Assembly (NCBI GenBank): GCA_039815185.1
Contig: JBCBZT010000055.1
Span: 1-51,469, forward strand
From: Cyanobacteria bacterium P01_A01_bin.123
GTDB taxonomy: Bacteria > Cyanobacteriota > Cyanobacteriia > Phormidesmidales > Phormidesmidaceae
Reading direction: 5' to 3'
Length of the DNA stretch: 51,469 bases
The notes below the pieces were generated by a model. It was not told the origin of the DNA, did no database searches, and saw only the letters and a program-made list of their open reading frames with translations. Below are positions 22,435-25,501 of this stretch, piece after piece (position 1 is the stretch's first letter; the number at the start of each line of letters is the position of its first letter). Made by a program: the position numbers and the translations under genes.

Positions 22435-22908
22435 ATGGACGACCGCTATCCGTTAATCGTGTGCGCTTCGCTGGTGCAAAACCCGATGAACTTGGGGGCG
22501 TTGTGTCGAACGGTGGAGGGGTTTCGTTTGGCGTCTTTGGTGTTGCCCAGTCAAGCGGTGATTGATGATTGGGAGTTTCGCAAGTTGGCGGTTTCGGCCC
22601 AGCAATGGCAACCTTTGGCGGTTTGTGCGCCGGCGAGCTTACCTAAATGGATTCAGCACCAGCAACACCAAGGCTATACGGTTCATGCGCTTACTCTATC
22701 GCCCCAAGCCGAAGTGCTATCTAAGGTAATTTTTCCGCAAAGAACTGTAATCCTATTGGGACGGGAATTGACGGGGATTCCGATGGAAATTGAGAAGTTG
22801 TGCGATCGTCGGGTGGTGATTCCCCAATATGGCCAGGTGGATTCGCTAAATGTGGCGACTGCGGGCGCGATCGCGATGTATGAGTACATGCGACAGCAGG
22901 TTGGATAA
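22435..22908 (+). CDS. TrmH/SpoU family RNA methyltransferase
   Basis: QNPMNLGALCRT, LLGRELTGI, IPQYGQVDSLNVATA SPOUT motifs. Confidence 0.9.
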   Translation: MDDRYPLIVCASLVQNPMNLGALCRTVEGFRLASLVLPSQAVIDDWEFRKLAVSAQQWQPLAVCAPASLPKWIQHQQHQGYTVHALTLSPQAEVLSKVIFPQRTVILLGRELTGIPMEIEKLCDRRVVIPQYGQVDSLNVATAGAIAMYEYMRQQVG

Positions 22909-22936: not shown

Positions 22937-23281
22937 TCACGGTTGTTTGGGTAATAAAGGTTCGACATGTTGACGTAAGACAGGGATGTCAATACTGGCT
23001 GTTCGCCAAACTTCGTCTAAGTCGATGTCGTCATAGTTATGAATCAGATTGTCTCGCATCTCTGCAATGGCATTCCAGGGAATTTGAGGATGCTTGCCAC
23101 GATAGGGAAACGAGATACGTTTAACGGCTTCCCCAATGATTAGAAGTTGGAAGACAACAGCAGACTGAGTTTTGTCATCAGACAGAAATTCAACCTGATC
23201 GCAACCTTGAATATATTTCAGGACTTTGCCTGCGGCTAGAAAGATATCGAGCAGAGCAGCATCGTCACGGTTGGCAGACAT
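22937..23281 (-). CDS. hepT: HepT-like HEPN (DUF86) RNase toxin
   Basis: IIGEAVKRIS, IPW, RX4HXY motif RDNLIHNY; overlaps the MNT gene. Confidence 0.9.
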   Translation of the reverse strand: MSANRDDAALLDIFLAAGKVLKYIQGCDQVEFLSDDKTQSAVVFQLLIIGEAVKRISFPYRGKHPQIPWNAIAEMRDNLIHNYDDIDLDEVWRTASIDIPVLRQHVEPLLPKQP

Positions 23282-23588
23282 GAATAACTTTGGCAGTGGA
23301 GAGAATATTATGACGACGAATCCAGTTTTGGCTGCGCTCGATGGCTCGTTTGCTGACGAGATCGACTTTGCGATTCAGTATGGCTTCGAGTTCTTTCTGC
23401 ATTTGAGCGTGGTCGAAGAGTCCCCATTGGGCTTTTGGGGAAAAGGTGACAAGGAAGTCGACATCGCTGTTGTCGGTGAAGTCATTGCGGAGAACAGAGC
23501 CAAAAACAGCAAGTTCGGCAATTTGCCAACTTTGACAAAAGTCGGTTAGATCTGGCAGTAAAGCTTGGAAGGTGGGTATGGTCGCCAT
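23265..23588 (-). CDS. mntA: MntA-like minimal nucleotidyltransferase antitoxin
   Basis: FGSVLRNDFTDNSDVDFLV (GSX10DXD), RKVDLV. Confidence 0.9.
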   Translation of the reverse strand: MATIPTFQALLPDLTDFCQSWQIAELAVFGSVLRNDFTDNSDVDFLVTFSPKAQWGLFDHAQMQKELEAILNRKVDLVSKRAIERSQNWIRRHNILSTAKVIHVCQP

Positions 23589-23643
23589 AGTGAGTCTGAC
23601 TAAGTTGTACCCTGCTGACTTATCTTAAGTATGCAACGATGAC

Positions 23644-23750
23644 GCGATCGCCGAATGGTAATTTCCCAGTATGGCTAGGTGGATTCGATAAATGTGGCGA
23701 CTGCGGGCGCGATCGCGATGTATGAGTACATGCGACAGCAGTCCGAATAG
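23644..23750 (+). pseudogene. Displaced duplicate of the 3' end of the TrmH-family gene
   Basis: Ungapped alignment of 22802-22899 with 23644-23741 (offset 842); CAG>TAG in-frame stop; own terminal TAG. Confidence 0.93.
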
Positions 23751-23777
23751 AGCTAAGAATAAGGGCTAATATTCTGC

Positions 23778-24148
23778 TTACCAGACTCTGACCATCTGGA
23801 GTGAAAAACCAGACAATTCAGGCTTGCAATCAACAAACACTATCAGGATTAGTCAAAATTTTAGGCGATTGCCCAGGATGATAGACATGAACTGTGCAAT
23901 TCTTTCGATCAATGAGTAATCCTAAAAGCACTCCGTTTGCTATGTATTCTTCCATCTTCTCCTGTAAAGTCTTCAATGCATCACTGGCTGAGCGTAGCTC
24001 TACAACAAAATCAGGACAAATCGGCGCAAATGATGCCTGCTGTGTCGGGGAAAGCGCGTTCCATCGCGCCAGCCTGATCCAAGCAACATCTGGGGATCTC
24101 ATAGCACCATTGGGTAGCGTGAACCCAGAACTTGAATCAAATACCTCC
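23778..24148 (-). pseudogene. Uma2 (DUF820) endonuclease remnant, 5'-truncated and frameshifted
   Basis: EVFDSSSGFTLPNGAMRSPDVAW...ICPDFVVELRS...KMEEYIANG; no N-terminal third; 4-bp TGTT duplication near 23835 separates the tail DCKPELSGFSLQMVRVW*. Confidence 0.9.
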
Positions 24149-24218
24149 TCATCGTTTATGGCCGTCGCAATGCGAAAGCGTTGAATTCCAGGCAGACATC
24201 TTCCGTCAAGTCTAGCAA
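24149..24218 (-). ncRNA. ssrS: 5' fragment of 6S RNA (ssaA/ssrS), apparently truncated
   Basis: GCTAGACTTGACGGAAGATGTCTGCCTGGAATTCAACGCTTTCGCATTGCGACGGCCATAAACGATGA matches my recall of cyanobacterial 6S 5' strands; lies just downstream of purK; -10-like TACATT at 24229-24224. Confidence 0.7.
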
Positions 24219-24271
24219 AGGCTAATGTAGACCTTTGAACTTCTGCGATCGCCAATGGGATGATTTGAACC

Positions 24272-25501
24272 TCAGGCAACTTGCGGATACCAGATAGACT
24301 CAATGCGGGCGATCGCATCCTGAACGGCCTCGCTCTCCTTTTCAGCATCACCGTGCAATAGCACCGTGACATGCCCCAGCTTCCGTCCCGGTCGTGCTTC
24401 TGTTTTGCCATACCAATACACGTGACTGTTGGGCAGTTGTTCAAGCTGGCGGCGTTTGTCTAAATATTCATCCGTTGAGGTTTCATACCCCAACAAATTC
24501 ACCATCACCGCTGCTCGACAGGTCATCGTTGGCGACCCCAAAGGCTGGCCACTGACGGTGCGCAATTGCTGTTCAAACTGGGATGTTTTGCAGGCATCCA
24601 GGCTGTAGTGACCCGAGTTGTGCGTGCGGGGGGCAATTTCATTGATCAGTACCTGGCCATCCGCAGTCAGAAACAATTCGATGCCAAAGATGCCCACAAC
24701 TTTAAGACTTTCCATCAGCGATCGCGCCATGGATTCCACTGCTGTTTTTACCGCATCAGTGATTGGAGCTGGGGCAATTACTCGCCGACATATCTGATCG
24801 ATCTGCTGAGTTTCTACCACAGGATAGGTAACGACATCACCCGTCTGCGAACGTGCCACCATAATTGCCAGTTCTCGATCAAAGGGCACGAATGCTTCCA
24901 GTAAAACCGGCTGATAGCCCAGTTTTTGCCATGTGGATTCTACCTCAGCTGGGCTATGCAAAATAAACGTGCCCTGGCCGTCATAGCCATGACGACAGGT
25001 TTTGAGCACCACAGGCGTCCCGAGGTGAGAGATTGCGGTCTTGATCGTTTTGGAATCTGGCTTTTTTCCAGGCTCAAGGATTAACGACACAAACTTTGGC
25101 GTCGGTAAGCCCAGATTTTGACAATAAGCTCGCTGTTCAGCTTTATCCAAAAGCGGTTCTAGGGCACTCAGTTGAGGATAAAATCGCACATTTTGCGCGG
25201 CCAATGCTTTTAACGCAGGCAAATCGATAAATTCGTTTTCAAAGGTGATGACATCGCAGTGGCTAGCCAGTTTAGCGGTTGCTGCAGCATCAGCTACCGG
25301 AGCGAGGACAGTTTCTGACGCGATCGCGACGGCAGGATCATCCACTTTTGGGGTTTGCACCACCAGTTGCAAATTCAGTTTCTTTGCCCCTGGTGCCATC
25401 ATCCAAGCCAGTTGACCACCGCCAATGATGCCAACACGGGCGATCGCCGGAGCAGACGCATCATCTTTTGGAATATGACCAGAATTGCGTGGGGCAGACA
25501 T
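24272..25501 (-). CDS. purK: N5-carboxyaminoimidazole ribonucleotide synthase
   Basis: GIIGGGQLAWMM, DVITFENEF, GYDGQG, NEIAPRTHNSGH, YGKTEARPGRKLGHVT. Confidence 0.97.
   Translation of the reverse strand: MSAPRNSGHIPKDDASAPAIARVGIIGGGQLAWMMAPGAKKLNLQLVVQTPKVDDPAVAIASETVLAPVADAAATAKLASHCDVITFENEFIDLPALKALAAQNVRFYPQLSALEPLLDKAEQRAYCQNLGLPTPKFVSLILEPGKKPDSKTIKTAISHLGTPVVLKTCRHGYDGQGTFILHSPAEVESTWQKLGYQPVLLEAFVPFDRELAIMVARSQTGDVVTYPVVETQQIDQICRRVIAPAPITDAVKTAVESMARSLMESLKVVGIFGIELFLTADGQVLINEIAPRTHNSGHYSLDACKTSQFEQQLRTVSGQPLGSPTMTCRAAVMVNLLGYETSTDEYLDKRRQLEQLPNSHVYWYGKTEARPGRKLGHVTVLLHGDAEKESEAVQDAIARIESIWYPQVA

Follow-up and report, generated by a model that had tools for sequence, protein, structure and literature searches.

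Introduction

6S RNA measures about 185 nt and, as a stable transcript, binds the sigma70 RNA polymerase. In cyanobacteria, 6S RNA (ssaA, 6Sa or Yfr7; RF00013) is commonly adjacent to purK, as described in the excerpted text of PMC1242208, and the excerpt of PMC5721685 reports a role in nitrogen recovery on the basis of a 6S deletion mutant of Synechocystis. The second family concerned here, Uma2 (PF05685), is annotated in Pfam only as 'putative restriction endonuclease', and its nuclease activity is putative.

The DNA analyzed here, referred to as the window, is a stretch of 51,469 nt from Cyanobacteria bacterium P01_A01_bin.123. An earlier note had proposed that about 70 nt behind its purK gene represent the 5' half of a 6S gene, cut by one deletion and fused to a dead Uma2 gene. 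With cyanobacterial 6S RNA the locus shares only the position downstream of purK; it lacks similarity above the level of shuffled sequences, the invariant core and the rod, and the true gene lies on another contig, C55. With the Uma2 loci L086-L090 it shares 78-84% amino-acid identity over the remnant, a common EVFDSSSGFTLP start, a C-terminal MxxVW/IW end (in a shifted frame in the window) and a matching promoter/5'UTR. Unlike these loci, the window copy is without a start codon and about 82 N-terminal codons, and its C-terminus is frameshifted by a 4-nt duplication. Very probably, the locus is an ordinary Uma2 pseudogene behind purK, 348 bases short relative to a related strain, with its likely promoter retained and with 6S intact on another contig.

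Results

A Uma2 pseudogene with two lesions lies behind purK

Features of the locus are listed in Table 1. The genome search returned one purK match within the own genome. On the minus strand, the end of purK at 24272 is followed by 124 nt and then by a Uma2 frame entered at EVFDSS (first base 24147). The remnant matched PF05685 with 92.6 bits, above the gathering cut-off of 27 bits, over profile positions 42-156 of 172. All 38 non-self matches, found in 35 of 150 family genomes, start abruptly at about 24151-24141 (query positions 125-150), in agreement with the abrupt switch into the middle of a Uma2 frame that had been described earlier. The full-length Uma2 homologues (n = 29) showed 71-84% amino-acid identity to the remnant, and in 28 of the 29 fetched homologues (one was unparsed) EVFD is preceded by 77-82 residues that are missing from the window copy.

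Table 1. Features of the purK-Uma2 locus (positions in the window).
Feature	Position	Strand	Remarks
purK (N5-carboxyaminoimidazole ribonucleotide synthase)	24272..25501	-	intact, single copy; Pfam PF02222, PF22660, PF17769 (ATP-grasp, preATP-grasp, PurK_C)
Likely native Uma2 promoter and 5'UTR	24181..24236	-	overlaps nt 1-38 of the claimed '6S half'
Likely -10 element TAGACT	24209..24214	-	counterpart in L087-L090 is TAGAAT/TAAAAT, about 37 nt ahead of the ATG
Leader remainder, 33 nt	24148..24180	-	left flank of the probable deletion
Junction	24147..24148		348 letters of a related strain missing here
Uma2 (PF05685) pseudogene remnant	23778..24147	-	about codons 83-203 of intact orthologues, no start codon
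4-nt duplication	23832..23835	-	last ~17 Uma2 codons out of frame, early stop at 23830
Spurious 204-aa ORF	23830..24444	-	alternative purK frame, leader and Uma2 remnant

No complete Uma2 reading frame with an N-terminal part and a start codon was found at the locus. A frame switch near 23832 is visible in the translation of the remnant; the contigs of the related strain in public runs X3 and X4 are without the duplication that causes it, 4 letters being missing at the place of 23832-23835, and the contig from run X2 is shorter by 4 letters in total. The Uma2 gene behind purK is thus a pseudogene with two lesions, 5' loss and the 4-nt frameshift, and its description as dead, based on the missing start codon and the C-terminal frameshift, holds. 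The arrangement of Uma2 behind purK was absent from the 31 other purK loci and the 29 Uma2 loci checked.

The 204-aa ORF had already been called spurious, and this assessment was borne out, its Pfam match (PF05685) being confined to residues 95-201. In the longer allele of the related strain this frame runs on for only about 9 codons beyond the junction before it stops (the loose end reads HGF, then stop, in frame 0). Since the first missing letters close the frame so early, the ORF is a product of the junction and a by-product of the deletion.

A related strain carries 348 additional letters at the junction

Parts of the stretch occur in eight public DNA runs, which come from two studies; no RNA run was listed among them. 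In X3 and X4, both from the second study, 23779-24147 and 24148-24900 are found on one contig, where 348 letters separate them, and the strain represented by this contig is 93-94% identical to the window at the locus. The Logan contigs concerned in X3, X4 and X5 measure 6.4-7.5 kb. The same loose end, with identical first 30 letters of the missing DNA, was found in X3, X5 and X8. At the joint of 24147 and 24148, 0 letters fit both sides in the X3 and X4 contigs. These data show a single break at 24147/24148 and a difference of 348 letters.

Misassembly at the junction was considered. The short allele is present in X1, where a contig spans the junction without differences, although X1 may be the source of the window. 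It is also present, with one substitution, in a contig of X2, the second sample of the X1 study, which crosses the junction with 30 letters on its short side, one fewer than the bridging rule requires. Pattern scans for the undeleted allele gave one chance match in metagenomes (a phage nrdA/nrdB contig, L115), 0 matches in both scans of genome contigs, the second with a gap range one base too narrow for L088 itself and hence uninformative, and 0 matches in viral contigs, and the loose-end motif had 0 matches in the own genome.

The missing Uma2 codons amount to 246 nt in the orthologues, which fits within the 348 letters and leaves about 100 nt of leader. From the end of promoter homology to the EVFD codon the undeleted allele measures 381 nt compared with 252 nt in the orthologues, that is, about 129 nt extra. 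We infer that the 348 bp were lost here by deletion rather than inserted in the related strain, and that they comprised the 5' coding part of Uma2 and about 100 nt of leader, of which the first 30 letters were read. These 30 letters scored 9.6 bits against 6S columns 60-125, and 77 of 200 shuffles scored as high. The single deletion proposed earlier probably holds for the 5' part of Uma2; a lost 3' half of 6S has no support from the first 30 of the 348 letters, which are not 6S-like.

The spacer resembles the promoter region of Uma2 orthologues

Two blocks of 24236-24181 align with the DNA just upstream of the L088 ATG, with 28 of 37 and 14 of 16 positions identical. This alignment gave the best score (36) over 29 Uma2 upstream regions, a value reached by 0 of 300 shuffles (maximum 30). 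Loci L086-L090 align at identical offsets, four of them at no more than 50 of 1000 shuffles and L090 at 106 of 1000. When the window was left out and profiles were made from the orthologues only, two of the three had the promoter site as their top match in the 8.1-Mb genome (E values of 0.16 and 0.0025). The profile without L088 placed it at rank 5 (E = 4.4), so that the match depends largely on L088. The 70-nt piece alone scored 25 against the Uma2 upstream regions, and 14 of 300 shuffles reached this score. Judging from these alignments, nt 1-38 of the 70 are thus likely to be the promoter and 5'UTR of the Uma2 gene itself.

A -10-like TACATT had been reported after the purK stop, and it is indeed present at 24229-24224, 43 nt from the stop codon. 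It has no conserved counterpart in the orthologous Uma2 promoters, in which TAGACT aligns instead with a TAGAAT/TAAAAT box and would serve as the -10 element, with a predicted transcript start near 24202. A strict sigma-70 scan of 23500-24500 found no promoter.

The 33 nt that remain of the leader had no significant match to 6S, Rfam or the 172 other family genomes, and they are almost unchanged in X2, X3, X5 and X8. BLAST of the spacer against 61 genomes (E up to 1) returned only short chance matches outside the window, and in a search of 173 family genomes (E up to 0.002) the window itself was the sole match. A fluoride riboswitch, suggested by a shared short word, was dropped for want of an Rfam match.

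Across 24148-24271 the spacer shows about 1 difference in 124 nt from the X3 strain (~99% identical; X3, X5 and X8), while the flanking genes differ by 6-8%. For the X3 strain the differences number 52 of 629 in purK and 21 of 365 in Uma2, giving the spacer a binomial P value of 0.0003 and 0.006, respectively, with a uniform rate assumed. This is more conservation than a dead leader needs.

Such conservation, together with the ~129 nt by which the leader exceeds that of the orthologues, speaks for a mini-gene or small non-coding RNA that lay downstream of the promoter and ahead of Uma2 and comprised about 24200-24148 and some 100 nt of the deleted DNA. The deletion would then have truncated an undescribed, lineage-specific small RNA or leader element of about 150 nt that is transcribed from the Uma2 promoter and near-invariant between strains. 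We consider this improbable. The element has no Rfam match, folding of the leader in three windows gave no signal (z = 0.00, 0.52 and 0.33), and the leader was not found in the 172 other family genomes. In X2, a further strain retains the promoter, yet its leader diverges below 24198; above that point it has 7 substitutions and a 10-nt insertion at 24256. Moreover, a short block may seem conserved merely through recombination among strains.

As a separate observation, 24180-24161 resembles by eye (13 of 20 positions) a segment of the undeleted allele beginning 43 nt further on, counted with the loose end at 24148, and the extra leader length of 129 nt equals 3 x 43 nt. The two may reflect a decayed tandem duplication or may be a coincidence.

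Part of the leader also bears on the direction of the 348-letter change. In a gap-tolerant MAFFT alignment 24180-24148 falls tentatively on the RIERTATGEV codons of the orthologues, as if the segment were decayed Uma2 coding sequence, the window allele the older and multiply deleted one, and the 348 letters an insertion in the X3/X4 lineage. The placement is not the best local alignment, the joint shows no letters that fit both sides and hence no target duplication, and the X3/X4 allele, free of the 4-nt frameshift, looks less decayed; we rate an insertion as less probable still than a truncated small RNA, and keep to a deletion in the window.

The 70 nt lack detectable 6S similarity

An alignment of 30 cyanobacterial 6S sequences, A1, was used as the basis of a sequence profile. 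The 5' strands of these RNAs are strongly conserved, with invariant columns 7-44. The region 24230-24148, which contains the 70 nt that had been matched to the 6S 5' strand, scored 10.4 bits against the profile, where shuffles averaged 12.0 bits and 159 of 200 scored as high; the first 70 nt of the true 6S gene of this genome gave 84 bits. After 30% random mutation the true half still scored 34 bits (minimum 21), and after 40% a mean of 19 (minimum 9), values that are optimistic as the control sequence is itself part of the A1 profile. A relic diverged by more than about 40% is below detection by this test.

Other sequence comparisons agreed. The best match to the invariant 22-nt 6S core in the locus was 11 of 22, as high as in 528 of 1000 shuffles, and pairwise comparison of the 70 nt with 6S stayed at shuffle level (47-158 of 300 as high). 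Of eight comparisons of the 123-nt spacer with 6S 5' halves under permissive scoring, two came out borderline (12 of 300 and 21 of 300 shuffles as high); with stringent scoring the spacer was not significant (40 of 300 as high). A genome-wide nhmmer search with the 6S profile placed no C63 match among the top 20.

Structure-based searches pointed the same way with less power. RF00013 had no match at or above the gathering score of 46.4 bits at 24149-24218, the covariance model being weak for halves: a true 70-nt 6S half scores just 10.6 bits. The family-specific covariance model R1 gave -0.4 bits on the minus strand at the locus. An Rfam scan of the region (E up to 10) returned two chance matches, and that of the whole window at gathering scores returned none. 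With a custom 6S covariance model, of low power for halves, the window gave 73 matches at E up to 10, the best of 10.8 bits and none at the locus. As reported earlier, no 3' half of 6S was found in the window by covariance-model and Rfam scans. Together, the tests show that the 70 nt after purK are without detectable 6S similarity.

Short words shared with 6S (CTGCC, TGGCAG) are visible by eye in the 70 nt. In A1 itself, columns ~20-27 and 80-90 carry a near-invariant ACUGCCA and a complementary UGGCAGU, left unpaired by the RNAalifold consensus; these may form an alternative helix of cyanobacterial 6S.

An intact 6S gene lies on another contig

In a search of the whole genome with RF00013, a truncated match at 24149-24218 and no full-length one would have supported the earlier claim. 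The opposite was found: a full-length 6S gene at G000:C55:56298-56480 on the minus strand (99.4 bits, model positions 1-187), the sole match over the cut-off in the genome. Its fold is stable (z = -3.21; 0 of 200 shuffles as stable), and TATGAT lies just upstream, as in most relatives. This intact ssaA refutes the claim of a 6S-null strain.

Contamination of the genome is 5.99%. The GC content of C55 is 0.500 compared with 0.502 for the genome, and its tetranucleotide distance ranks 32 among 89 large contigs (C63 ranks 47). The genes on either side probably encode an M16 peptidase and a SAM-dependent chlorinase-like protein. Between this same pair of neighbours, the same-genus genome G001 carries a 6S gene with 88.5% identity over 227 nt. 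Because of this native composition and shared neighbourhood, the C55 6S gene is native and not a contaminant.

All 41 genomes searched carry 6S, and 18 of 41 purK places have it within 500 nt downstream, a count that leaves out the second piece of the split purK match of G001. The premise that 6S commonly lies downstream of purK is thereby upheld, in line with the excerpt of PMC1242208; since only 18 of the 41 have 6S behind them, adjacency to purK is not defining for 6S. Among 30 sampled 6S loci, the M16 gene adjoins 20, purK 15 and both 9, and a chlorinase-like gene lies upstream in 4, as here. The purK gene of G001 on C181 has no 6S behind it. G001 carries both 6S and purK twice (C589 = L083, C133 = L084), and the purK-6S pair, which lies on the 2.5-kb C589, may be contamination or a second copy.

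The older order was likely purK-6S-M16. A later break would have detached purK from the 6S promoter, and this separation would predate the split of the two sampled species of the genus. As 6S was kept beside its usual downstream neighbour and purK was the part separated, no 6S relic is expected behind purK. This argues against reading the 70 nt as the strongly degraded remains of an ancestral copy of 6S or of its promoter, left after the working gene moved or was duplicated. The frequency of 6S behind purK, the borderline permissive scores of the spacer and the short words shared by eye speak for such a relic; the A1 profile and core tests are at shuffle level, and the same bases align better with Uma2 promoters. 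The relic is very unlikely, slightly more so than an insertion, and no evidence was found for the relic duplicate held out earlier as a fallback. That a functional 6S gene was halved here, yielding a 6S-null strain or a chimeric RNA, is scarcely credible: the deletion and the junction are real, and with 5.99% contamination the C55 copy could in principle be foreign, but that copy is full-length with native composition and genus-level synteny, and neither side of the junction resembles 6S.

A toxin-antitoxin-type pair adjoins the locus

A 98-nt direct repeat (92% identical) at 22802-22899 and 23644-23741 duplicates the 3' end of a SpoU-family methylase gene (22435-22908). Between its two copies sits a toxin-antitoxin-type pair of the MNT-HEPN kind (NTP_transf_2 and HepT-like) at 22937-23588. 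The arrangement suggests a small cassette that inserted at the 3' end of the SpoU-family gene. In the X3/X4 strain the pair is not covered, and the DNA after Uma2 is different.

Discussion

In the favored reading, that of an ordinary Uma2 pseudogene, one deletion likely removed the start codon and the first ~82 codons of Uma2, while the likely promoter (24236-24181) would have stayed in place and may still be active. A transcript, if any, would run from a non-coding leader into the Uma2 remnant, which is frameshifted and has no start codon, and would yield no product. The separation of purK from 6S would be the outcome of an older rearrangement, before the two sampled species of the genus split.

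A practical lesson concerns claims of half genes: because a covariance model hardly detects half a molecule, any such claim has to be checked with a sequence profile. A cyanobacterium naturally devoid of 6S would be notable, given that 6S is present in every genome searched, and the window does not come from such a strain. The locus comes down to a routine pseudogene in a variable slot behind purK, which matters little.
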